A stretch of DNA of 59,473 nucleotides, taken from NCBI GenBank assembly GCA_014874255.1, contig JACWAN010000086.1, forward strand, positions 1 to 59,473. Reading direction: 5' to 3'. This document shows, in pieces, positions 2,497 to 59,473 of the stretch. Positions within the stretch are counted from its first letter, which is position 1. The number at the start of each line of letters is the position of its first letter. The stretch comes from Candidatus Woesearchaeota archaeon. GTDB lineage: Archaea > Nanobdellota > Nanobdellia > Woesearchaeales > UBA525. Both the position numbers and the translations under genes were made by a program. Under the pieces are notes generated by a model. That model worked only from the letters and a program-made list of their open reading frames with translations, did not search any database and was not told the DNA's origin.

Positions 2497-2620
2497 CAAG
2501 GTTGCCACGGAGAACCCACTCTCCCATCCGGTCCGAGGTCTAGACGGACGCTCACGATTATGCAGTCGCTCATGCTCCTGCATGTTCGCGCCCGGGTCTT
2601 GCTCCAAGGCGGCAACCTTG
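2497..2620 (+). ncRNA. S-family structured element, copy A (candidate ncRNA, function unknown)
   Basis: Closing stem CAAGGTTGCC (2497-2506) / GGCAACCTTG (2611-2620). Conserved blocks TCCGGTCCGAG (2527-2537), GGACGCTCAC, CATGTTCGCGCCC and CCAAGG. Apical hairpin ATGCAG/CTGCAT. Confidence 0.5.
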
Positions 2621-5870: not shown

Positions 5871-6035
5871 GGCTCTTGGGCAAATGCTGTGTTGCCGGCC
5901 AAAGGGCGACCCGTAGCAGAGAATGAAGCAAAGGAGGAGAGGGGGTTGTCCCCCACGGGGAGCTCCGCTGACGCGAAGAACGCAGCGACACGGGTCGCAG
6001 CCGGCAACACCGCGAAGCGAATTCGCCTAAGAGCC
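5871..6035. mobile_element. R-family MITE, copy R2 (165 bp)
   Basis: TIRs GGCTCTTGGGCAAAT / ATTCGCCTAAGAGCC. Perfect 9-bp direct repeat CTGTGCGAC (5862-5870 and 6036-6044). Confidence 0.8.
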
Positions 6036-6045
6036 CTGTGCGACG

Positions 6046-6738: not shown

Positions 6739-6802
6739 AAGATCTCCTCGCGGTCGTAGTAGATAAACCTTGTGGATGAGGACTCCTTTTTCTTTTTTTT
6801 TT

Positions 6803-6913
6803 GGGCGTCGCGGAGCATTTGTTCTCCCTCCGGTCCGAGGTTTAGTCGGGCGCTCACCGTGATGGCGCTGTTGCGCCATGTTCGCGCCCGTCAATCGTTC
6901 CAAGGCGACGCCC
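6803..6913 (+). ncRNA. S-family structured element, copy B
   Basis: Closing stem GGGCGTCGC/GCGACGCCC. Hairpin GGAG-CATTTGTT-CTCC. Blocks TCCGGTCCGAGG and GGGCGCTCAC. Apical hairpin ATGGCGC/GCGCCAT, then GTTCGCGCCC and CCAAGG. Confidence 0.5.
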
Positions 6914-7022
6914 ACGGTTGAAACGTCTCGTGGCGCACTTTGTCTATCTCCTATTTCTTTTCCATAGCGTCGTTTTGTTTTCCCGTCGGGAAACGCGTTC
7001 TTCCCCCTCTCTCCGTCGACGC

Positions 7023-7036
7023 AAAGGTTTATAAAG
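7023..7036 (+). promoter_or_regulatory. BRE/TATA-like box of the ribosomal protein operon
   Basis: AAAGGTTTATAAAG. This is the only TATA-like box between S copy B and rpl3, and it implies a leader of about 170 nt. Confidence 0.5.
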
Positions 7037-7227
7037 GGTTCCCGATTCTCCACGAACTACCCGAAAGGGAAGCACTGTCGGACCGGCTCCACAGGGGTCG
7101 CCGACCAAGGCCTGAGAAGGGATGCGCTTTTCAGTACCGACACACTCGGTTCTCGCAGCGCACCTCCGCAAAAGGCCATAGCAACGGCACAGCCGAAAGG
7201 CATACGCCTCACTAGCGAGATACCAAC

Positions 7228-21053: not shown

Positions 21054-21257
21054 GTTCTTCATTTGTTCTTCATTATTACGTTTTATTAATTTATTATTAC
21101 GTTGAGTATTGCGTCGAATATCCGTTCTGCTCCGAAGGGAATATTGCCTCGGATCGTGTGTCGGACGCGAGGATCAGGAGCCGCAGCGACTGAAAATAAG
21201 TTCTCCGTGACATTCCCCAATACGTTTTTTAAGGTCTCTTTCCCTGTTTTCCAGCCA

Positions 21258-25525: not shown

Positions 25526-25561
25526 ACCCTCTTTTCCCTTTCCTTTTTCCCGTTTCTCTCC

Positions 25562-25766
25562 GGCTCTTAGGCGAATCACGTCCGTGGCCGTCACCGGCTG
25601 CTCGGCAATCGCTTCTCCTCTCGAAAGCGCTCCTCCCCGTAAGGGGCATGGTCACTCCATTCCCAGGTTCCTCGGAGCCTCGGAACCATCCCCTCCGTCG
25701 CGCTCCGCCCCCCTTCCTCGCTCGCCTCACCCTCTGGCCGGTGACGACTCCATCTGCCTAAGAGCC
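25562..25766. mobile_element. R-family MITE, copy R4 (205 bp, interior inverted relative to R1)
   Basis: TIRs GGCTCTTAGGCGAAT / ATCTGCCTAAGAGCC. Flanks TTTCTCTCC and TTTCTATTC match at 7/9. The interior rc matches R1 (GTCACCGGCCAGAGGGTGAGGC ... TTGCCGAGCAGCCGGTGAC). Confidence 0.75.
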
Positions 25767-30040: not shown

Positions 30041-30118
30041 ATGGCGACAGAAGATATTACTATATAGAAAATAAATAATCCTCCTCAACCTCATCGCTAT
30101 GACCTCCGCCTTTTCCTC

Positions 30119-30238
30119 CGTTCTCATCGCCACGGCCGGTTGTTCTCCCTCCGGTCCGAGGAAAGAACGGGCGCTCACGCAGATGGTCCGCGGACCATGT
30201 TCGCGCCCGGGTCTTGTGCCAAGGTGGCGATGAGAACG
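30119..30238 (+). ncRNA. S-family structured element, copy C
   Basis: 15-bp closing stem CGTTCTCATCGCCAC/GTGGCGATGAGAACG. Blocks TCCGGTCCGAGG and GGGCGCTCAC. Apical hairpin ATGGTCC-GCG-GGACCAT, then GTTCGCGCCC and CCAAGG. Confidence 0.55.
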
Positions 30239-31384: not shown

Positions 31385-33559
31385 ATGGCATCTTCACGCG
31401 GAGCGCTCATCGGCGTACGTCCCGTCCTCCTCCTCGTCTTCACGTACTCCCTCCTCTTCCCGTTCTTCTCGCTCTCTTCCTCCCCCGTCGCCGCGGTCTC
31501 CTTCTCCGAGATCCATTACGACCCCGACGGCGCGGACGCCGGGCACGAGTTCCTCGAGCTGGCGGACGCGCCCTCGCTCGCGGGCTGGACGATCGCCGAC
31601 CCCTCCTCCAACGACACGCTCGTCCTCCTCCGGAACGCCTCTTCTTCCCCCGCGACCGCGCTCATCGTGGACGACGGGTTCGACTACGCCGGACTGGGCT
31701 GCGCAATCTACTCCGCGGGCGGCGCAATCGGGAATGGCCTCAACAACGGAGGGGATGCGCTCACGCTCACCAGCCCCGACGGGAACCTCTCGCTCGTCGC
31801 GGTCTACTCCGGCGGCGCCTCCGCGGGACGCTCGCTCGTCCTCGTCGACGGGAACTGGACGTGGGGCGTCGTCGGCGGAACCCCCTGCCTTCCAGAAACG
31901 ATGAACGGTACGCAAGGAACGGATACGACGAACACGACCGGAACGACGGAGAATGAATCGACGAGCACCGCCGACGACAACGAGACCGTCTCGCTCAGCA
32001 TCGTCCTGCCGTCGACGGTCTACCTCGGCGTGAACTACTCCTCCTTGTTCCGCGTCACGAACAACGTGCACATGCCCGGCGAGACCGCGTACGTCAACGT
32101 CACCGTCGCGTACACCGTCACCCGGGACGGTCTCCCCTTCCTGAACGCCTCGTTCGCCCGCGCGGTGAATTCCTACACGACGACCGCGACCGGCTCCCTG
32201 CTCCTCGACGGGCCGGGGAACTACACGCTCTGCGGCACGGTCGTCGACGTCGTCGACGCCGGAATGAATGTCACGTCGAACACCTCATCCGATTCTTCAC
32301 CCGTCTGCGCTCCCTTCGCGGCGGTCGACCCGTACGCCATCCCCTGCGACGTCACGCTCGCGCTCGACCTCGCGGACGACGCGCTGATCCGCGACGCCGG
32401 CTCGCCCGTGAAGTTCCGCACGCTCGTGCAGCGGAACGACGACGCGTGGCTGCCGCCGTTCGTCGTCGAGTACGGCGTCTACGCCCTGGACGGCAGCCCG
32501 CTGACGCTCAAGGAGTCGGAGAACGCGAACCAGAAGAGCTACACGCCGCGCTGCGGCGGCGACGTCTGCGTCTACATCCTCAGGGGCCGGCTCGCCATGG
32601 TGGCGTGCAACAACTCCGCGCAGCAGACCGGGGACGAGCGGCTCCTCGTCGTCCGCGGCGATCCGGCCGCGTCGCCTTCTCCCGAGTCTTCGCTCAGCTT
32701 CGGCGACCTCCACGAGCCGAAAGCCGGCTACGGGGCGGGCGACACGATGCGCGTCGACGTCACCGTGTACCGAGGGGACACGGGCAAGTACGCGGTGAAG
32801 CTCTGGGTCGAGGATGCGGACGGGAAGAAGGCGTCCGACGTCACCTCGTTCTCGGCGAGGACGCGGTTCACGCGCTACGACGCGACGCTCCCCGTCGTGC
32901 TGCACGACGGCCTGAAGGACGGGACGTACCGGGTGGTGCTCGACGGGCTGGACGAACAGGTCGCGGAAGAGATACGGATTGGATCATCGTCAAAAACCAC
33001 GAAAAACAACTCCGTCAATGAACTCGCACATCCCGTCATCGCTTCGTTCTACACCCGCGCGCGGAAGGCCGCGAAGAACGTCACGCTCGCCGCCTCGTTG
33101 GATGGGGGCGGGAACTACACCGTGGAACTGCTCGGTCTCGCGGACCATCACGAGGAGCGCGTTGAACTCGTCGGCCCTCTCCAATACCGGCAAGCCGTCG
33201 CCCTCTTCCCCGGGCCGAACCTCTTCGTCCTCCGGCTGCGCGACAAGAAAGGGATCGCCGCCGAACGCTCCTTGCTCCTCGAGATGGGCGAGAACATCAC
33301 CGCGGTCGATTCCTTCACGCTGCCGCCGCTCGCGTGCGTCGCCTCCTCCTCGCCGAAGAACGGCGAATCATCCGGCGTCGGGAAGGGCGCGACGGGGAAC
33401 GCCTCGTCGCTTCCTCCTCTTTCCGATCCCTCTTCCTCGCCCTCGTTGCTCACCGGCGGCGTGACGTACGCGGCCGAGCACACGACGGACATCCTCCCGG
33501 TGCTGCTCGGCGTGATCGGCCTGCTCCTCCTCGGCATCGCGCTGCAGCAGCGACGGTAG
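31385..33559 (+). CDS. secreted surface glycoprotein with N-terminal lamin-tail domain and C-terminal TM anchor
   Basis: Signal peptide. LTD motif FSEIHYDPDGADAGHEFLEL. Many N-x-S/T sequons. C-terminal ILPVLLGVIGLLLLGIALQQRR. Confidence 0.7.
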   Translation: MASSRGALIGVRPVLLLVFTYSLLFPFFSLSSSPVAAVSFSEIHYDPDGADAGHEFLELADAPSLAGWTIADPSSNDTLVLLRNASSSPATALIVDDGFDYAGLGCAIYSAGGAIGNGLNNGGDALTLTSPDGNLSLVAVYSGGASAGRSLVLVDGNWTWGVVGGTPCLPETMNGTQGTDTTNTTGTTENESTSTADDNETVSLSIVLPSTVYLGVNYSSLFRVTNNVHMPGETAYVNVTVAYTVTRDGLPFLNASFARAVNSYTTTATGSLLLDGPGNYTLCGTVVDVVDAGMNVTSNTSSDSSPVCAPFAAVDPYAIPCDVTLALDLADDALIRDAGSPVKFRTLVQRNDDAWLPPFVVEYGVYALDGSPLTLKESENANQKSYTPRCGGDVCVYILRGRLAMVACNNSAQQTGDERLLVVRGDPAASPSPESSLSFGDLHEPKAGYGAGDTMRVDVTVYRGDTGKYAVKLWVEDADGKKASDVTSFSARTRFTRYDATLPVVLHDGLKDGTYRVVLDGLDEQVAEEIRIGSSSKTTKNNSVNELAHPVIASFYTRARKAAKNVTLAASLDGGGNYTVELLGLADHHEERVELVGPLQYRQAVALFPGPNLFVLRLRDKKGIAAERSLLLEMGENITAVDSFTLPPLACVASSSPKNGESSGVGKGATGNASSLPPLSDPSSSPSLLTGGVTYAAEHTTDILPVLLGVIGLLLLGIALQQRR

Positions 33560-33725
33560 CTTCATCGCCACGGCCTAGCTGTCCTCGCTCCGCTGCGGGG
33601 CGATCGTCGGGCGCTCACGATTATGCAGTCGCTTCGGTCCAGTCACTGCGTTCCTGGCCGACTCGTATAACTCGTCGCTCCCGCATGTTCGCGCCCGTCA
33701 ATCGTGCCAAGGTGGCGATGAAGCT
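33558..33725 (+). ncRNA. S-family structured element, copy D (variant with ~60-nt insertion)
   Basis: 14-bp closing stem AGCTTCATCGCCAC/GTGGCGATGAAGCT. Blocks GGGCGCTCACGATTATGCAGTCGCT ... CATGTTCGCGCCC and CCAAGG. The first hairpin is replaced by TCGCTCCGC-T-GCGGGGCGA. Confidence 0.5.
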
Positions 33726-34079: not shown

Positions 34080-34120
34080 GAACGTCGTTTCGTGAACGCG
34101 GTTCCGGTTCGGAGCGCGGC

Positions 34121-34187
34121 GCCGGCCAAAGGGCGAGGCGTGGCGAAGAAAAGAGCAATGAGCGACGGGGGTCGCCCCCCTACGGGG
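34121..34187 (+). repeat. R-family core without TIRs (R5)
   Basis: GCCGGCCAAAGGGCGAGGCGTGGCGAAGAAAAG..GGGGGTCGCCCCCCTACGGGG. The 28-nt purine-rich spacer has the same length as in R1. Confidence 0.55.
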
Positions 34188-34341
34188 CGTCTCCGAGCCA
34201 CACGAGGAGAAACAGGGGCGCGTCTGCGCGACTGTGTCGTGGAGTGTGCGATAACACTCGCGATACGCCGAGCATGTCCGAGTCATACGAGGACCGGCAG
34301 GAGCGTCAGCGACTGCAGCCCGCGCCGCTCGAAGAACAAGA

Positions 34342-39925: not shown

Positions 39926-40158
39926 CCCTTTTTTTTCCGGACCGTCGTCCCTCCTTCCCGTCTCTTCTTTTCCCTTCCTTCTCCCCCTTCCATCCCTCGT
40001 TCTTTTTCCGTTCGTCGTCCCGTCGTTCCGTCCCGTCCTTTCCGTCCGTTTTTTTCCGTTCCGTCTTTTCCGTTCCGTCTTTCTTCGGCCGTCCTGTTTT
40101 TCCCTTCTCTCTTTCCCCTCCGTCTTTTCCGTCCCGTCGTTCTTCCATCGTCCCCGTC
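39926..40158 (+). repeat. 233-nt A-depleted polypyrimidine tract with degenerate TCCGT-type periodicity
   Basis: Only 3 A residues (39941, 39992, 40147). G occurs almost only in CG. Motifs such as TTCCGTC recur. Confidence 0.85.
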
Positions 40159-40363
40159 AGCCCCTTGGCACAAGGCCCGGCGGCGAGGATGCGGCCGCAG
40201 CCGCATAATCCCGAGCCGCAGTCGCTAGCGCTCCTGCGCACGATGCTCAGAAACCGCGGTTTCTGGCATCCCGGAAACGCACGGCGTTTCCCGTGACTTC
40301 GTCGTTGCGCCGTCAAAATCTCGGACCGGATGGGAGAACTGCTCGGCCGGGCTGACGGGGACG
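40149..40363 (-). ncRNA. S-family structured element, copy F (inverted orientation, large internal insertion)
   Basis: On the minus strand: closing stem CGTCCCCGTCAGCC (rc of 40350-40363) / GGCTGACGGGGACG (rc of 40149-40162). Blocks TTCTCCCATCCGGTCCGAG, GATTATGCGGC..GCCGCAT and CTTGTGCCAAGG. Confidence 0.45.
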
Positions 40364-41708: not shown

Positions 41709-41876
41709 GGCTCTTAGACAAATGAGGTGTTGCCGGCCAAAGGGCGACCCGTAGCGATAAGAAGAAACGGAGAGTTGAGGGGGTTGCCCCCTACGGGGCT
41801 TCAACGATGCAGCGAAGAACGAAACGACACGGGTCGCAGCCGGCAACACCGCCGAAGGTGAATTTGCCTAAGAGCC
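41709..41876. mobile_element. R-family MITE, copy R3 (168 bp)
   Basis: TIRs GGCTCTTAGACAAAT / ATTTGCCTAAGAGCC. The flanking direct repeat is at least GGATGCG (41702-41708 and 41877-41883). Confidence 0.8.
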
Positions 41877-41948
41877 GGATGCGGCCGCGATGAAAATGCG
41901 GGTCACCGTCCTTCCCTCCGCCGGCCGATCCGTCGCCGGTAGTCGCGC

Positions 41949-42096
41949 CGTGGTCGCTGCTGCTCCCGGGTTCCTCGTATGACTCGGAACCGTGGTCGCT
42001 GCTGCTCCCGGGTTCCTCGTATGACTCGGAACCGTGGTCGCTGCTGCTCCCGGGTTCCTCGTATGACTCGGAACCGTGGTCGCTGCTGCTCCCGGG
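41949..42096. repeat. perfect 42-bp tandem repeat, 3.5 copies
   Basis: Unit CGTGGTCGCTGCTGCTCCCGGGTTCCTCGTATGACTCGGAAC at 41949, 41991 and 42033, with a partial copy at 42075-42096. Confidence 0.9.
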
Positions 42097-49845: not shown

Positions 49846-50952
49846 TCACCAGTTCGGTTTTTGTTTCGTCCAGGCGGCGTTCGGCCGCGCGGAGAGGAGT
49901 GGGGCGTTGGTGCCGTAGTACTGCGTCCAATGCTCGCCGACGAAGGGCGCCAGCGCCTCTTGGACGAAGCCGTACGGGTTCGGGACGCTGGCCGTAATCC
50001 TCATCATGCCGTTCACCTTCTTCGCGTTCAGTCCGGAGACGTCCGTGGCCCGCGTCACGAAGAGGTAGAGGGCGCCGTTCGCGACCTTGAGGGGCGCGCC
50101 TCCTGCGAAGCTGCCGTCGGACGGGTCGGAGTTCTCCCAGTGCAGCAGCACGAGCTTCATCGTGGCGGCGTCGCCGAACTTCTGCTTGAAGAGCGGATCC
50201 TGGAGGAGGTACGCGCTGAGCGCGTCCGTGATGCCCGTCGTCTCCGCGGGCGAGAGCTTGATCGGCTTCGAGGCGGGCTTCATCCATTTCGTGACGCAGT
50301 AATAGCCGAGCATCGGCGTCGCGCGCGGCGCCATGTCGACGTACTGTTCATCGCCCATGCTGTTCTGCGCCATGAGGACGCCGCGGCCGCTCCCTTGGAG
50401 GAACTGGATGCCGATCCCTGCGCCGTCAGGCAGGCTGCCGAGCACCGTCTGCGGATCGAGGACGGTGCCGTCCGGATAGACGCCGATGGCGACGTTGATG
50501 AGACGCCCGTCCGGTTGCGTCGCGTAGATCGCCGCGGTCACGGTCGCGCCGCCGGCCTCGATGCCGAGCTTCGCGCCCGTCGGGAGCTGACCGTAGACAT
50601 CCTCGGTGTTCGCGAGGTCCTCCAGCGTGTAGATCGGCGGCGAGGCGATGAAGCCGTTCACCCCGGTCTCCACATCGACCACCGGGTCAGGGTACTTGTT
50701 CCCCATGCTGTCCGTGCCGGGGACGATCCGTATCTGGGTGGCCTGCTCCGGGAACTCGAACACCTGATGCGGGCCGATGGTGTACTGCTGGCCGTTGATC
50801 GTGCCGTCGACCGCGACCGCGGACGGGTTGTAGATCCTCGCTTCCGACGGATTGCCCGTCGTCGGGACGATGATGTCCGCGTTCGCCGGCGTTCCGATGA
50901 GCGTCGCGCCTGCGACCATCGCGCCTGCGAGGATCTTTTCGAGTGTGTTCAT
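49846..50952 (-). CDS. secreted protein, unknown function
   Basis: 368 aa. N-terminus MNTLEKILAGAMVAGATLIGTPANA. SD-like GGTGA and a TATA-like TTTATATATG lie upstream on the minus strand. Confidence 0.6.
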   Translation of the reverse strand: MNTLEKILAGAMVAGATLIGTPANADIIVPTTGNPSEARIYNPSAVAVDGTINGQQYTIGPHQVFEFPEQATQIRIVPGTDSMGNKYPDPVVDVETGVNGFIASPPIYTLEDLANTEDVYGQLPTGAKLGIEAGGATVTAAIYATQPDGRLINVAIGVYPDGTVLDPQTVLGSLPDGAGIGIQFLQGSGRGVLMAQNSMGDEQYVDMAPRATPMLGYYCVTKWMKPASKPIKLSPAETTGITDALSAYLLQDPLFKQKFGDAATMKLVLLHWENSDPSDGSFAGGAPLKVANGALYLFVTRATDVSGLNAKKVNGMMRITASVPNPYGFVQEALAPFVGEHWTQYYGTNAPLLSARPNAAWTKQKPNW

Positions 50953-51149
50953 TCGGTTCTCACCTGTGTCGCACCAGTATTACATCCTTTCTCATATATA
51001 AATGTTTCGGTTGGAGACTACTGTTGAGTGACAAAATAATGAATTTTTCTGGCGGCATGCACGAAAAGAGCTGCTTGGAGGGACACATCAAGCAAAAGTA
51101 TCCCTCCGGAGAGGGAAACTTTATAAGTACTGTTCTATTTTCAGAACAT

Positions 51150-51686
51150 ATGTTCCAAAAAAAGAACGATTTGTTCGTCGTCGAGCTCCTCGGCGCGGAG
51201 CCGATGCACCTCCGCCGAATCGCGGCAGCGACGGGGATCGCGCCGAGCACCGCGCTCCGCCTGCTGACGAAGCTCCAGGCGGACGGCGTCGTCGACCGCC
51301 GCGAGGAAGGACGGAACGCGGTCTACTTCCTCAAGAGCACGCCCGAAGCGACAATCCACAGTCTCATGGCAGAACACCAGAAGCTCCTGCGCCTCCTCGA
51401 GGAGTCTGAACTGCGGCGCATCTACGCAGAGATCACGCGGGAAACCGACGGCGAACTCGTCATCCTCTTCGGCAGCCACGCGAACGGCACAGCAAACGAG
51501 GGAAGCGACATCGACCTCTACGTCGAGACGACCGATCCGAAGAAGGAGCGAGCGATCGAGCTGATCAGCGACCGGATCCACCTCACGATCGGCTCGCTCC
51601 GGAAGGACTCCGACTTTTTCAAGGAAATCGTTAAGAACCATGTCATCCTGCAGAACGCCGAACGGTTCTTCAGGCTGATCGCATGA
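51150..51686 (+). CDS. wHTH-fused minimal nucleotidyltransferase (MNT)
   Basis: TATA-like TTTATAAG about 28 nt upstream of ATG 51150. wHTH LRRIAAATGIAPSTALRLLTKLQADGVV. NTase motif LFGSHANGTANEGSDIDLYV. Confidence 0.7.
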   Translation: MFQKKNDLFVVELLGAEPMHLRRIAAATGIAPSTALRLLTKLQADGVVDRREEGRNAVYFLKSTPEATIHSLMAEHQKLLRLLEESELRRIYAEITRETDGELVILFGSHANGTANEGSDIDLYVETTDPKKERAIELISDRIHLTIGSLRKDSDFFKEIVKNHVILQNAERFFRLIA

Positions 51687-52150
51687 ACATATTCCTCAAG
51701 AAGCTCGTCGCGGAAAGGAAGGTCGTCCTCGTCGGGCAGAACGGGAACCTCGCGCACGCGTACGCGGAGAAGTCGCGGAACTCGCTGAAGGCCGCGAAGA
51801 TCCTCCGTCGGGAAGAGCTTCCTGAAGAGGCGACGACGATGGCGTACTACGCGATGTATCACCAGGCGCTGGCGCTCCTCTTCTCCACCGGCATCAAATC
51901 GGAGAACCACGCAGCGACGGCCATCCTGCTCGCAGAGCTCTTCGTCGTCGACGGCGACGCGCTCGCCGCCGCGAGAAGGACGCGCGTCAAGACGCAGTAT
52001 TACGCCGACGCGGAGATGACGCGGGCGAAAGCCGAGACGCTCATCAGGGAAGCGGAGACCTTCACTACAGGGATCCGCGACAGGATTGACCGGCTCACCA
52101 CTACAGAAAAAGCACACATCCGGGCGGAGTTCTCTCGCGAGTACCTCTGA
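51683..52150 (+). CDS. HEPN-domain protein
   Basis: 155 aa, helical. ATGA overlap with the MNT gene. Confidence 0.6.
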   Translation: MNIFLKKLVAERKVVLVGQNGNLAHAYAEKSRNSLKAAKILRREELPEEATTMAYYAMYHQALALLFSTGIKSENHAATAILLAELFVVDGDALAAARRTRVKTQYYADAEMTRAKAETLIREAETFTTGIRDRIDRLTTTEKAHIRAEFSREYL

Positions 52151-52588: not shown

Positions 52589-52830
52589 AGATAACATTCT
52601 CGAAGCGATTCTGGAAAGCGTACACTCGGCTCAAGGATGATGCACTCAGAGAACGGATCCAGAAACAACTCCGGAAAGCGCTCGAAAACCCCGAGATAGG
52701 CAAGCCGCTGTCGTACAGCCTCAAAGGACTGCGGACGCTCCGGGTCGATCCGTATCGGATCATCTATGCGGTAGAAGGGGAGACCCTTGAGGTTATCGCG
52801 CTCGGCAACCGGGACGACGTCTACGAATAG
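52576..52830 (+). CDS. relE: RelE/ParE-family toxin
   Basis: GTG start overlapping the antitoxin. KGLRTLRVDPYRIIYAVEGETLEVIALGNRDDVY. Confidence 0.7.
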   Translation: MEAVKITFSKRFWKAYTRLKDDALRERIQKQLRKALENPEIGKPLSYSLKGLRTLRVDPYRIIYAVEGETLEVIALGNRDDVYE

Positions 52831-52861
52831 CTTTTTATACGCGCCGCCGTTCCACCGGCAG

Positions 52862-55399
52862 ATGGGAGAGGAGACCGCAATCTGGACGGAGAAATACCGG
52901 CCGAAGAAGTTCTCAGAGGTGCTCGGCCAGCAGGAGATCGTCGAGAAAGTCGAAGCGTTCGTCAAGCAAGGCAACATGCCTCACCTGCTCTTCGCCGGAC
53001 CCGCGGGCATCGGAAAAACAACCCTCTCCCTGGTCATCGCCCGCCAATTATACGGGGATGAATGGCGCGGTAATTTTCTTGAGCTCAACGCGTCCGACGA
53101 ACGCGGCATCGACGTGGTGCGCGTCAAGGTGAAGGACTTCGCGAGGACGCGCGCGATCGGCGACGTCCCCTTCAAGATCATCTACCTGGACGAGTGCTTC
53201 GGCTACGACGCAAAGGTCACCATCCGCACCGAGCACGGCGTCGAAGAACGGCGGATCGGCGACGTCGTCGAGAACGTCGACGCCGCGGACGTCCTCTCCG
53301 TGGACGAATCCGGGCGGCTCGCCTTCACGCCCATCAACGGGTTCCTCAAGCTCCCCCACAAGGCCGAGCAAGGGTTCTACCGCGTCACGCTCAACGGCCG
53401 CAGCATCGAAGCGACCGGAAACCACCTGCTCCTCACCCCCGACGGCTGGAAGCGGGTCGATGCATTGACGAACGGCGAACGGATCCTCTGCCCGCCCGAA
53501 ACCCCGCCTGTCGGAAAAGAAGAGCCGCTCCGCCCGGTCCAGTATGTCCTGACCGGCCTCCCTCAGGAGATCAAGGCGAAAGAACGGTACATCGCCCGCT
53601 CGCCCGAGAAGAAGGTCGTCGAGCTCCTCGCCACCCACCCGGAAGGGCTGACACGGCGTGACCTCACCGCGCTGAGCGGCATCGCCTCGCCGAAGCTCTC
53701 AAGTATCCTCTCGCCGAGGAAGAACGAGTACTACCTCTCACTCCCCCATCACGGCCTCGTCCGGAACGACAACGGGCGGTTCACCCTCGTCGGGGAGAAG
53801 AACGCGGCGATCGACCGCCTCTGCCGCATCAAGCGCGCGCAGAATCCGCGGAACCAAGGATATATCGAGGGAGCCCTCTCTGAGAAAGGGCTTTATCCTT
53901 TGCAGCCAGAGAAGGCGCTCATCGTCGCGCGGATCGCCGGCCATCTCTTCGGCGACGGCTCCCTCAGCCTCAAGACACGCTCACTCTTCTTCTCCGGCAA
54001 GGAAGAGGACATGCGTCGCATCAAGGAGGATATCGCCACCCTGGGTTTTTCGAGCCTCGGCAACATCCGCGAGACCCGCTGGCGGAACGGTCGCTGCTGG
54101 TCCTTCACTGAGTCGAAGATCGCGCTCCTCAGCGCCTTCTACTCCCTCGGCGTCCCTGTCGGGAAGAAGACCGACACCTTCGTCCGCGTGCCCGGATGGG
54201 TGCTCCGCGGCGATGCTGTCGTCAAGCGGGAGTTCCTCGCCGCGCTCTTCGGAGCGGAAGGATCAACCCCTTCCTTCCAAGGACGGACGATCAAGCCCGT
54301 CGTGGTCGCGCAGGCAAAACGCCGCGACCTCGAGGAGAACCTGCGCGAATACCTAGAACAGCTCCGCCTGCTCCTCGAGGGCTTTGGCATAGCAGTCGAG
54401 ACGAAGATGACGAGACGTACCAAGAACATCCGGACCGACGGCACAGAGACAATCGAGGGCATGATATGGGTGAAGAACAGCCGCGCCAACATCATCCGGT
54501 TCCTCGAACGGATCGGCTACCGCTACGCGGCCGAGAAGGAGACGGAGGCGGCACGCGTCCTCCGCTATCTCCGCTGGAAAGAGGCGCTCGGCCGCGACGT
54601 CTATCGCTTCCACGCGCCGCATTACGCCGTCTGGAAGGAGCAGTATCTGGTCGGAGATTCAGCGTTCCATTATGTCACCGGTCTCGAGAAGATTGACGAT
54701 CCGGCAGCGGTCTATTGCCTGCAGACCGCGAACCAGCGATTCATCGCCGACGATGTCGTCGTCCACAATTGTGATGCCCTGACGAAAGAGGCGCAGCAAG
54801 CGCTCAGGCGCACGATGGAGAACTACACGCAGACCTGTCGTTTCATCCTCAGCTGCAACTACAGCTCGAAAATCATCGATCCCATCCAAAGTAGATGTAC
54901 GGTTTTCAGATTCAAACCATTGGCGAAGGAAGAGATCTTCAAGATCATCAAGCACGTCGCCAAGTCAGAATCCTTGACGATCGACGCGAAAGGCGAGGAA
55001 GCGCTCTTCACCGTGAGCAACGGCGACGTCAGGAGAGTAGAAAACCTGCTGCAGGCGTGCGCCGCCCTCAGCAAGAAAGTGACGGAGGACGTCGTCTACA
55101 GCATCGCCTCCTACGCGAAACCGAAAGAGATCGCTTCTCTTCTCGAACTGGCGAAGAAGGCGGACTTTGCAGGCGCGAAGAAACAGCTCCTTACGGTCCA
55201 GCTCGAGTACGGCTTATCCGGAGCGGACATCATCAAGCAATTGCAGGCAGCGGTCTGGCAGCTGAAGGACGTCGACGACAGAAAAAAACTGGAGATGATC
55301 AAGCAGTGCGGCGAAGCAGAGTTCCGCATGGTCGAAGGCAGCGACGAATTCCTCCAGCTGGAAGCGCTCTTAGCCGCGTTCACGCTCAGTTTGCAGTGA
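52862..55399 (+). CDS. rfcS: replication factor C small subunit, interrupted by an intein
   Basis: WTEKYRPKKF, GPAGIGKTT, IIYLDE|C...HN|CDALT (split Walker B), and QSRCTVFRF. The exteins sum to about 320 aa. Confidence 0.9.
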   Translation: MGEETAIWTEKYRPKKFSEVLGQQEIVEKVEAFVKQGNMPHLLFAGPAGIGKTTLSLVIARQLYGDEWRGNFLELNASDERGIDVVRVKVKDFARTRAIGDVPFKIIYLDECFGYDAKVTIRTEHGVEERRIGDVVENVDAADVLSVDESGRLAFTPINGFLKLPHKAEQGFYRVTLNGRSIEATGNHLLLTPDGWKRVDALTNGERILCPPETPPVGKEEPLRPVQYVLTGLPQEIKAKERYIARSPEKKVVELLATHPEGLTRRDLTALSGIASPKLSSILSPRKNEYYLSLPHHGLVRNDNGRFTLVGEKNAAIDRLCRIKRAQNPRNQGYIEGALSEKGLYPLQPEKALIVARIAGHLFGDGSLSLKTRSLFFSGKEEDMRRIKEDIATLGFSSLGNIRETRWRNGRCWSFTESKIALLSAFYSLGVPVGKKTDTFVRVPGWVLRGDAVVKREFLAALFGAEGSTPSFQGRTIKPVVVAQAKRRDLEENLREYLEQLRLLLEGFGIAVETKMTRRTKNIRTDGTETIEGMIWVKNSRANIIRFLERIGYRYAAEKETEAARVLRYLRWKEALGRDVYRFHAPHYAVWKEQYLVGDSAFHYVTGLEKIDDPAAVYCLQTANQRFIADDVVVHNCDALTKEAQQALRRTMENYTQTCRFILSCNYSSKIIDPIQSRCTVFRFKPLAKEEIFKIIKHVAKSESLTIDAKGEEALFTVSNGDVRRVENLLQACAALSKKVTEDVVYSIASYAKPKEIASLLELAKKADFAGAKKQLLTVQLEYGLSGADIIKQLQAAVWQLKDVDDRKKLEMIKQCGEAEFRMVEGSDEFLQLEALLAAFTLSLQ
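53195..54769 (+). mobile_element. intein (525 aa) with LAGLIDADG homing-endonuclease domain, inserted in the RFC Walker B motif
   Basis: Starts with Cys (CFGYDAKV) and ends VVHN, followed by +1 Cys. LAGLIDADG-like IAGHLFGDGSL and LAALFGAEGS. Confidence 0.85.
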
Positions 55400-56344
55400 T
55401 CAGAGATACTCGATGTAGACTTGGAAGAACTTCTCGAAGCTCTGCTCCAGTTTGGCGAGGAGGAAGCGGTGCAGCTTCGCCTGATAGCCTTTGTCGTGGG
55501 CCTCCAACGCCGAGAGATAGGCGATGCGCGCGCTCTTCCTGATGATCAGGGGCGGGTAGCCTTCTTTCAGGAGGATCGCGTTGAGGAGGATGCGTCCGAC
55601 GCGTCCGTTACCGTCTTCGAAGGGGTGGATGCGCTCGAAGCGGGCGTGGAAATCGGCCGCCTTCTTGAGCGGGTGCTCTTCGCTCTCCTCCAGCCAGCGG
55701 AGCAGCTCGTGCAGCTCTTCCTGCACCCGCTCCGGTCTCGCTGTCTGCACATCACGCATCACGAGGAAGTTGGGCGCCCGCTTGAAACCGGTCGCCACAC
55801 CCGTCCCCTCGACGACGATGCGGTGCAGCTTGCGGATCGAGGGGATCGTCAGCTTCACCTTGTTCGCGAAGAGGAGGTCGTTCGCGGCTCGCGTGTTGCG
55901 CGTCTCGTAGACCTCGCGCAGCTCCTTGTTCGACGGCAGCCGCTCCTCGGTGAGGATCAGGGTCACGTCCTTCAGCGTGAGCGAGTTGCCCTCGAGGGCG
56001 TTCGACTCGTACGTGAAGTTGATGCTGAACCGGTCGATCAGGTCGCGCCGCTGCACCGGCGAGAGACGCCGCTTGATGCGCTTGTATTCGACGCGGTAGC
56101 GTTCCAGCTTGCGCAGCTTCTCCTCGGTGAGGACCGCGTCGCGTCTGTAGCGCGCCAACGCCTCTTTCTGGTGGGCGGCCACTTCCTGCTCGTCGAGGGC
56201 ACGTTGCACCGTTTCGTTCTCCGCGTCCTTCGCCTCCTTGATTAGCTTGGCCGCCTTCGCCACCTTCCCGCTCGGCAAGCGGAAGGAGCGTTCCGCGTAG
56301 AGATAGGTGTGCCCTTTCACCCGCTTCTTCGCTGTGCGCGTCAT
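55400..56344 (-). CDS. Fic-domain protein (AMPylase family) with internal inhibitory motif
   Basis: HPFEDGNGRVGR active-site motif. An upstream S-N-A-L-E-G matches the (S/T)xxxE(G/N) inhibitory helix. Confidence 0.85.
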   Translation of the reverse strand: MTRTAKKRVKGHTYLYAERSFRLPSGKVAKAAKLIKEAKDAENETVQRALDEQEVAAHQKEALARYRRDAVLTEEKLRKLERYRVEYKRIKRRLSPVQRRDLIDRFSINFTYESNALEGNSLTLKDVTLILTEERLPSNKELREVYETRNTRAANDLLFANKVKLTIPSIRKLHRIVVEGTGVATGFKRAPNFLVMRDVQTARPERVQEELHELLRWLEESEEHPLKKAADFHARFERIHPFEDGNGRVGRILLNAILLKEGYPPLIIRKSARIAYLSALEAHDKGYQAKLHRFLLAKLEQSFEKFFQVYIEYL

Positions 56345-57504: not shown

Positions 57505-57677
57505 GGGCGCCGCGGAGATTTTGTTCTCCCGCACGGAACGTGTTCCGCGTTCCGGCGCCCCGGCAGCCTCTGGCTGCCGTTGGCTCCGGTCCGAGATATT
57601 ATCGGGCGCTCACGTAGATGGCCTCGCAAAAACGCGAGCCCATGTTCGCGCCCGGACATCGCTCCAAGGCGGCGCCC
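57505..57677 (+). ncRNA. S-family structured element, copy E (with ~55-nt insertion)
   Basis: Closing stem GGGCGCCGC/GCGGCGCCC. Hairpin GGAG-ATTTTGTT-CTCC. Blocks TCCGGTCCGAG and GGGCGCTCAC. Apical hairpin ATGGCCTCGC/GCGAGCCCAT, then GTTCGCGCCC and CCAAGG. TATA-like CTATATTG is centred about 25 nt upstream. Confidence 0.55.
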
Positions 57678-59296: not shown

Positions 59297-59473
59297 GTTC
59301 TCAGCGCCGACACCACCGCCTTCAGGCGACGCGCTGCTGCTCCGTCGCTTCGGCTCCTGATCGACTCGTATGACCCGTCGCTCTGGCGCACGGGTTCGTC
59401 CTCGAACCCTTTGCGCCTCGGGACTCCTGGCCGTCGTCCGGATGCGTCGACCGAGTCCAGTGGAATCGCGTCC

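Follow-up and report, generated by a model that had tools for sequence, protein, structure and literature searches.

What are the short elements that recur between the genes of this archaeon, and what keeps them folded while their sequence changes? In the 59,473-nucleotide stretch of DNA analysed here (the window), a first-pass annotation had pointed to six intergenic copies of a candidate undescribed structured RNA. Direct reading of the intervals finds all six where, and on the strands on which, they had been placed, and the family, hereafter S, is confirmed as a lineage-specific, structured, multi-helix repeat of ~110-215 nt that fills gene spacers in a small group of Woesearchaeota-type archaea. 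It is a family not described before, and its range is a narrow DPANN clade. The window carries genes for an archaeal primase, PAN, PheRS and a ribosomal protein cluster, and the nearest named relatives of its PheRS carry the label Candidatus Woesearchaeota.

Is the family more than a chance recurrence of short words? The conserved blocks were said to occur in a fixed order, and direct reading shows them, with two corrections: copy 4 has a variant 5' block (GUCCUCGCUCCGCUGCGGGG in place of UCUCCCUCCGGUCCGAG), and copy 6 is without GGGCGCTCAC and CATGTTCGCGCCC. The latter, a 13-mer, occurs exactly five times in the window, on the + strand each time; with up to two mismatches it gives 11 matches, against a shuffle mean of 3.5, and none of 100 shuffles gets to 11. 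The shorter blocks, taken singly with one mismatch allowed, are not commoner than chance in the window, so that the significance lies in their ordered combination. As well, each copy folds better than its own shuffles (z from -4.5 to -5.9).

Searched with a covariance model based on 12 copies, the window and the loci of DAHXMN01 together yield 21 copies at E <= 1e-8. DAHXMN01 is a single archaeal MAG in which a scan for the 3' block, run on one genome per species, had 13 matches on 12 contigs; the remaining matches of that scan were mostly single chance occurrences in GC-rich bacteria. All told, the model recognises 24 copies or more, scoring 52-122 bits, in four archaeal genomes that are related to one another, namely the window, DAHXMN01, L106 and L107/L110, the last three handles being contigs of two further related assemblies, all with S copies by the model. 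The scan of related MAGs that the first-pass annotation had asked for thus yields further copies in DAHXMN01, L106 and L107/L110. On 541 kb of control DNA the best score is only 22.9 bits, and in a relative with 68% PheRS identity the model finds zero copies. Two metagenome scans, with the 5' and 3' block patterns, gave 0 matches each, in a collection evidently without the JGI sample that contains L107/L110, and two viral scans gave chance matches only, which the covariance model turned down. Literature searches covering DPANN and other archaea found no described equivalent of S.

The fold common to these copies starts from a closing helix, P1, of 8-15 bp (11 pairs modelled), whose sequence is free and whose pairing is kept. 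Inward of it lie a conserved C:G pair, an AAG bulge on the 3' strand, a short helix P2 (GGM/KCC) and a pyrimidine-rich 5' domain with the sequence UUCUCCCUCCGGUCCGAG or a variant thereof, followed by a long arm made up, in order, of P3 (seven pairs), a UC/UC 2x2 loop, a 2-bp AC/GU helix, a 4-nt bulge and the hairpin P4. In copy 1, all on the + strand, P1 pairs 2497-2506 with 2611-2620, next to an A.C mismatch (2507/2610) and the conserved C:G pair (2508:2609). The AAG bulge (2606-2608, within CCAAGG) sits between P2 and P1 and is kept in nearly all copies, the exceptions being a few degenerate or diverged ones. P2 pairs GGA (2509-2511) with UCC (2603-2605); its third pair alternates among copies (C:G in 13, A:U in 7), and in GGA-type copies a fourth pair, read from the sequences, is G:C or G:U on the S strand. 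The 5' domain, UCUCCCAUCCGGUCCGAGG (2512-2544), appears to have a small hairpin inside. P3 pairs CGGACGC (2545-2551) with GCGCCCG (2588-2594) and leads into an asymmetric internal loop (2552-2559), in which UC (2552-2553) stands opposite UC (2586-2587), AC (2554-2555) pairs with GU (2584-2585) and GAUU (2556-2559) forms the 4-nt bulge. P4, AUGCAG...CUGCAU (2560-2583), has a conserved basal AUG/CAU and covarying distal pairs.

The pairs between loop and bulge covary too: the first is A:U in 18 copies and G:C in 3, the second C:G in 20 and G:C in 1, and in diverged copies the helix is replaced by GC/GC, GG/CC or AU/GU. Similarly, P3 becomes GGCGGC/GCCGCC in diverged copies, and the GGGCGC/GCGCCC helix that had been described as constant is not: copy 1 has GGACGC/GCGCCC, with an A.C mismatch, and copy 6 has GCGGC/GCCGC.

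That the helices covary while their sequence changes is well borne out. Every closing stem and apical hairpin quoted in the first-pass annotation is present. From a MAFFT alignment RNAalifold derives 30 pairs, and compensatory changes occur in 14. P1 pairs covary in nine of 11 columns. In a structure refined by eye over 21 copies, 18 of 29 pairs show double-sided changes, and 95.1% of positions pair, a figure that comes from an alignment fitted to the model; column shuffles give 79.4%, none of the 500 equalling the real alignment, and with partners slid, pairing falls to 31-43%. The unfitted MAFFT alignment already shows the covariation of P1, P2 and P4. Two competing helices were considered and rejected: a hairpin GGAGR/YCUCC, which is possible in GGA-type copies only, while P2 covaries in all types, and a helix between the junction strands either side of P3, on which the copies disagree.

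A stem-UCAC-x-GUUC-stem unit recurs as hairpins inserted in the loops of several copies, and the P3-P4 arm is bounded on both sides by 8-nt words of the form GRNNUYGU that resemble direct repeats, for example in L042 and in the copy at 33558-33725 (GGUCUUGU|arm|GGUCUUGC and GCGAUCGU|arm|UCAAUCGU). The arm of L107/L110, though different, lies between similar words. These could be the trace of a hairpin insertion or two protein half-sites.

Individual copies in the window range from compact to decayed, and of the six first described all except copy 6 score ~80-115 bits under the model R1. Copy 1 (2497-2620, +) is a short form of GGA type (103.8 bits, folding z -4.69). Copy 2, first bounded at 6803-6913, is better drawn at 6802-6914 (+; 115.3 bits), and its positional orthologue lies in the PPDK-L3 spacer of L110; that of copy 3 (30119-30238, +; 106.8 bits) lies in the divergent PheRS/radical-SAM spacer of L106. 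Copy 4 (33558-33725, +; 100.8 bits) has a V2 5' domain and a P4 loop with an inserted hairpin bearing the UCAC..GUUC motif, and its P1 begins within the stop codon of the upstream gene. Copy 5 (57505-57677, +; 79.8 bits), antisense to both flanking genes, has a ~60-nt insert in its 5' domain. Copy 6 (40149-40363, -) is diverged, with P3 as given above, a loop UCGG../CCUC and a ~95-nt insert before P3, about which the covariance search splits it into matches of 26.2 and 15.1 bits. A seventh copy (21137-21217, -) is degenerate and reduced, with P1 GGGAAUGU/AUAUUCCC followed by CGGAGAAC and CCGAGG; at 19.6 bits and E = 0.065 it lies in the twilight zone of the model and was recognised by eye only. 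Degenerating copies are also found at L019, L052:4723, L049:480 and L024:4698. Finally, the remnant of an older 5' arm, CCTCATCGCTATGACC, lies at 30089-30104 (+), 15 nt upstream of copy 3, and has a counterpart in L106 (GTTCCCATCGCCACGG). Adjoining copy 6 is a long CT-rich tract (39950-40150, +) with 14-nt periodic repeats (TTTCCGTTCCGTCT-like); spacers of the window are generally pyrimidine-rich on the + strand.

In which molecule, and on which strand, does the fold matter? Selection on a folded RNA or single-stranded DNA had been proposed, and the covariation supports a folded single strand, although RNA specifically is not established by it. Selection on one RNA strand should leave an excess of G.U pairs; there are nine, against 11 A.C mismatches (five of these at one recurrent P3 position), a balance that singles out neither strand and counts against the RNA reading. 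Folding is slightly more favourable on the reverse strand in 17 of 25 copies (p = 0.08), and the invariant UC/UC loop, read on that strand, is a tandem GA/GA motif.

The reverse strand is also where S comes closest to the archaeal processing stems that the long closing stems had called to mind. A bulge-helix-bulge consists of two 3-nt bulges on opposite strands with a 4-bp helix between them. In S orientation the polarity of the bulge is wrong for this motif in its canonical form and fits on the reverse strand only, where, by our reading, a CUU bulge precedes the short P2 helix with canonical polarity. A reverse-strand RNA carrying a relaxed bulge-helix-loop, cut by the splicing endonuclease and released as a circular RNA, is conceivable in so far as DPANN splicing endonucleases have broad specificity, and the slightly better folding of that strand, its tandem GA motif and the G.U that it forms at the recurrent P3 position would suit it. 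We nevertheless consider it very improbable: there is a single 3-nt bulge, and the central helix beside it has 3 bp in most copies, GGA-type copies having 4; on the reverse strand the fourth pair is A.G or C.A, and there is no second bulge at the required 4-bp spacing.

The setting of the copies bears on whether they are genes. They are intergenic without exception and often take up most of a short spacer, whether tandem, convergent or divergent. The 5:1 orientation bias remarked on earlier is found in the window, but the sister genome has both orientations, with no preference relative to flanking genes, and in tandem spacers sense and antisense copies are about equally frequent. This equality speaks against strand-specific cis-regulation of whichever gene lies next to a copy, and makes a strand-specific role as RNA awkward unless both strands work or the action is at the DNA level. 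No AT-rich (TATA-like) peak stands at a fixed distance on either side of S, which argues against an independent gene, and there is no oligo-T terminator at a fixed distance. Open reading frames from the conserved AUGs, translated by eye, keep neither frame nor length from one copy to the next, and copy 6 and L107/L110 have none; a type I toxin-antitoxin mRNA was rejected, there being no conserved small open reading frame.

It is against this setting that a small RNA gene has to be judged, whose RNA, excised from a longer transcript at the foot of P1, would enter a ribonucleoprotein, or would process itself, and whose variable parts might carry specificity. The architecture suits this idea: the closing helix varies, nucleotides at the junction and in the loops are invariant, and length differs in peripheral loops only. 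In its favour, too, are strong covariation, a core 90% conserved between species, a C(UUCG)G tetraloop in S orientation in the L012 copy, and G:C/G:U variation at the fourth P2 pair of GGA-type copies. Several properties do not, namely the lack of any promoter or oligo-T terminator at constant spacing, the lack of a G.U excess, variable single-stranded stretches of 4-8 nt, below guide length, and a density of ~1 copy per 10 kb with near-redundant cores, unusual for a small genome. Nor is there a match to known ribozyme or ribonucleoprotein RNA models, and we regard the explanation as distinctly unlikely.

Those models were searched broadly, and S, which had resisted assignment by eye, matched none of them: Rfam 15 gave 0 matches at the gathering threshold on both strands, and at E <= 10 nothing overlapped S in the window, L070, L021 or L012 on either strand. 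The classes covered include hammerhead, twister, HDV-like, hatchet and pistol ribozymes, SRP and RNase P, C/D and H/ACA sRNAs, and HEARO and other omega RNAs. S is not a tRNA either, ARAGORN reporting 0 tRNA or tmRNA genes in the window. Read from the alignment, neither strand has conserved boxes C (RUGAUGA), D (CUGA) or ACA, and the tandem GA/GA of the reverse strand lacks the adjacent bulge of a K-turn.

If S is not a gene, is it a transposon? The earlier argument against a transposon with terminal inverted repeats (TIRs) stands: the ends are not conserved, there are no target-site duplications (TSDs), and no transposase is nearby. The longest flanking repeat averages 1.84 nt, against 1.48 nt for the null, and reaches 4 nt or more in 5% of copies (null, 6%). 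Among 30 proteins scanned in and around S copies (the 59 kb window plus ~150 kb of related loci) there is no transposase or integrase, the Y1_Tnp family included. A classical TIR-type MITE would be small, repeated and intergenic with ends that pair, as S is, but this explanation is close to refuted, since the terminal arms differ between copies (mean identity 0.51, independent of the core), TSDs are absent, and a true MITE of the same window looks different.

That MITE, the G family, is a classical one of ~165-210 nt (2660-2822, 5874-6040 and 41716-41880 on the + strand, 25556-25766 on the - strand, and a partial copy at 34100-34190). Like S, it lies in the same spacers and is common to the window and DAHXMN01 (at L019, L032 and L049). 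Unlike S, it has conserved inverted ends (GGCTCTTAGGC.../...GCCTAAGAGCC, also given as GGCTCTTAGGCAAATG.../...GAATTTGCCTAAGAGCC) and 9-bp target duplications (CTGTGCGAC, CTCCTCTCC, GGATGCG(G)), and it is missing from the L110 PPDK-L3 spacer, where S is present. It has no match in Rfam.

Other features of the window deserve mention. At 41948-42096 there are 3.5 tandem copies, mutually 100% identical, of a 42-nt unit that also occurs in DAHXMN01 (L021, 800-841) at 95% identity, and 59380-59468 (+) is 88% identical to L021 967-1055, which adjoins an S copy, and may, judging by this match, be a further shared repeat. The small subunit of replication factor C (52787-55399, +) is split by an intein with a LAGLIDADG domain, and near it lie a nucleotidyltransferase/HEPN pair and a Fic-domain protein (region coordinates 50943-52150, +, and 55400-56344, -).

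Evidence on how S evolves comes from the two orthologous sites. Copy 3 and the L106 copy occupy the same PheRS/radical-SAM spacer, beside PheRS proteins that are 84% identical; four of their P1 pairs differ, and all four differences are compensated. Copy 2 and the L110 copy share the PPDK-L3 spacer (PPDK 86% identical) and differ, with compensation, in four of the five outer P1 pairs, while in the surrounding, unconstrained spacer identity has dropped to ~50-60%, with indels. Thus, at both sites nearly all P1 differences are compensated. Across 210 pairs of copies, mean identity is 0.72 in the core and 0.51 in P1, with no correlation between them (r = 0.06); between different species, cores are up to 90% identical at sites that are not orthologous. 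Together, the orthologue comparisons and the uncorrelated identities indicate a core that is conserved or homogenised, and a P1 that is specific to its locus and constrained only to pair.

The neighbourhood of the second site holds two further observations. The PPDK (2869/3010-5724, +) shares ~79% identity with enzymes of bacteria (Thermoanaerobaculales, Acidobacteriota, Edwardsbacteria), and the protein nearest to it (86%) is encoded on L110, the sister archaeal contig; this distribution suggests that the DPANN lineage acquired the gene from bacteria. A ~170-nt non-coding block (window ~7015-7200, +; L110 13435-13600) that begins with a BRE/TATA-like AAAGGTTTATAAA lies immediately upstream of ribosomal protein L3 and is strongly conserved between the species; it has no Rfam match and may represent the leader of an operon or an RNA that lacks annotation.

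Alongside conservation there is turnover, as genome-specific arm types at orthologous sites show. The UCAC/GUUC arm is found in every copy of the window and DAHXMN01, as against a plain hairpin with loop UGCAUGAAUC in L107/L110, which has three compensated pairs between those two copies. Presence varies too: the spacer at a KOW gene holds S in L107 and is empty in L106 and the window, while the remnant 5' arm beside copy 3 is found in both the window and L106. Synteny between the window and the DAHXMN01 loci, sought for empty-site comparison, was absent, and there are no near-identical copies that would point to recent bursts. An origin of P1 by insertion into pre-existing hairpins was rejected: perfect short-loop hairpins are no commoner than in shuffles, and none is like a P1 arm.

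Such turnover fits a non-autonomous mobile element moving as folded single-stranded DNA by means of a distant HUH or tyrosine enzyme, a possible, though on balance unlikely, alternative. S would then be an archaeal analogue of REP/REPIN-RAYT, of IS200/IS605-derived palindromes or of attC; the UC/UC mismatch and the bulge would mark the active strand, and the fold would be kept as competence for mobilisation. On the one hand, many intergenic-only copies in both orientations, free of TSDs and TIRs, are hallmarks of peel-and-paste or REP-type elements. Conserved mismatches within otherwise covarying hairpins, symmetric counts of G.U and A.C, arm types specific to a genome and presence that varies among relatives also fit; degenerate copies and the remnant beside copy 3 suggest repeated events at one locus, and the orientation of copies (5:1 in the window, 3:0 in L052) might track the direction of replication. 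On the other hand, among the 30 proteins scanned, neither the window nor the surroundings of any copy show an HUH or tyrosine enzyme, the ends are unconserved, and no conserved target word lies ahead of the element, the upstream flank having no fixed word and just a mild pyrimidine bias. Recent bursts are not indicated, the uncoupling of core and P1 is hard to obtain from whole-unit copy-and-paste, and the orthologues keep a perfect, compensated P1, whereas inert insertions should decay.

That uncoupling would be explained by a core moving between locus-specific closing helices. Such a structure-guided mobile core is one form of a further proposal, in which S would be the nucleic-acid part of an unrecognised DPANN system; the other is a class of RNA that scaffolds a ribonucleoprotein and would be abundant, processed, and possibly circular or self-cleaving. 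We think the proposal, in either form, quite improbable.

The best reading of the evidence is that S is a module selected as a folded single strand, on the basis of the family, the fold, the covariation, the two retained orthologous sites, the uncoupling of core and P1 and the lack of transposon hallmarks. As to what it does, we tentatively favour a REP/ERIC-like structured spacer module selected for its fold and probably acting in transcripts via a loop-reading protein, a plausible rather than a secure assignment. On this account, copies would have arisen by duplication into spacers, after which selection, gene conversion among copies, or both would have held the cores alike, while each locus would retain its own P1 through compensatory substitutions. 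With no promoter of its own, S would be transcribed passively, as part of spacers and of the untranslated ends of the genes next to it. A putative host protein could recognise the folded RNA via its invariant loops (UCAC/GUUC, CCAAGG and the CCGGUCCGAG block), and this recognition might mark transcripts for processing or protect their ends.

Either way, S matters beyond this locus. Some 1.5% of the window is given to it in a small, streamlined DPANN genome, and its fold is kept across species; it is absent from Rfam, yet covaries enough to define a model at once. If S is an RNA, it represents a new, abundant archaeal class with a protein partner; if it is a single-stranded DNA element, it is an archaeal counterpart of REP/RAYT- or attC-type structure-recognised DNA. 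It also offers a testable way into the question of how reduced archaeal genomes retain their repeats, and a marker for a narrow Woesearchaeota-type clade.

How does S compare with known systems? With riboswitch- and ribozyme-type RNAs it shares a variable P1, a conserved junction, expandable peripheral hairpins and strong covariation; it differs in its inconsistent position and orientation relative to genes, in lacking an Rfam match, and in a copy number far above that of cis-regulators. Like attC, which acts as a folded single strand, it keeps the pairing of its stem rather than the sequence, and has unpaired or extrahelical positions and a variable central part. An integron attC was rejected, however: by reading, the ends have no R'' (RYYYAAC) or R' (GTTRRRY) core sites, copies are scattered among housekeeping genes with no cassette array or integrase, and the interior of S is strongly conserved, which that of attC is not. 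Elements derived from IS200/IS605 were rejected as well, the ends of S pairing together and no tnpA or tnpB being nearby.

The REP, BIME and REPIN (RAYT) elements of bacteria are, like S, high-copy, strictly intergenic hairpins, imperfect palindromes with conserved mismatches, present in either orientation and in species-specific types, persisting for long, and without TSDs or an adjoining TIR-type transposase. A REP, however, is a conserved palindrome of 20-40 nt with a 5' GTAG, and S was rejected as a REP or REPIN: it is branched, 110-215 nt long, with variable ends and closing helix and no GTAG at its foot, and has a conserved single-stranded core, an archaeal host and no RAYT-like gene seen in the loci covered. 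The bacterial ERIC/IRU, Correia (NEMIS), BOX and RUP elements affect mRNA processing and stability. They resemble S in being ~100-150 nt long, folding when transcribed, lying in spacers in either orientation, having longer versions through inserts at fixed internal sites and keeping some copies at orthologous sites. Those elements, built either as modular boxes or as palindromes that run imperfectly from end to end, have conserved termini (and, in Correia, a TA duplication), in contrast to the variable termini, lack of duplication and asymmetric conserved core of S. Since the defining tests of a TIR-type MITE, REP, attC and C/D or H/ACA RNA all failed, and the fit to a canonical bulge-helix-bulge is at most partial, S is best filed, with these relatives in kind, under structured intergenic repeats.
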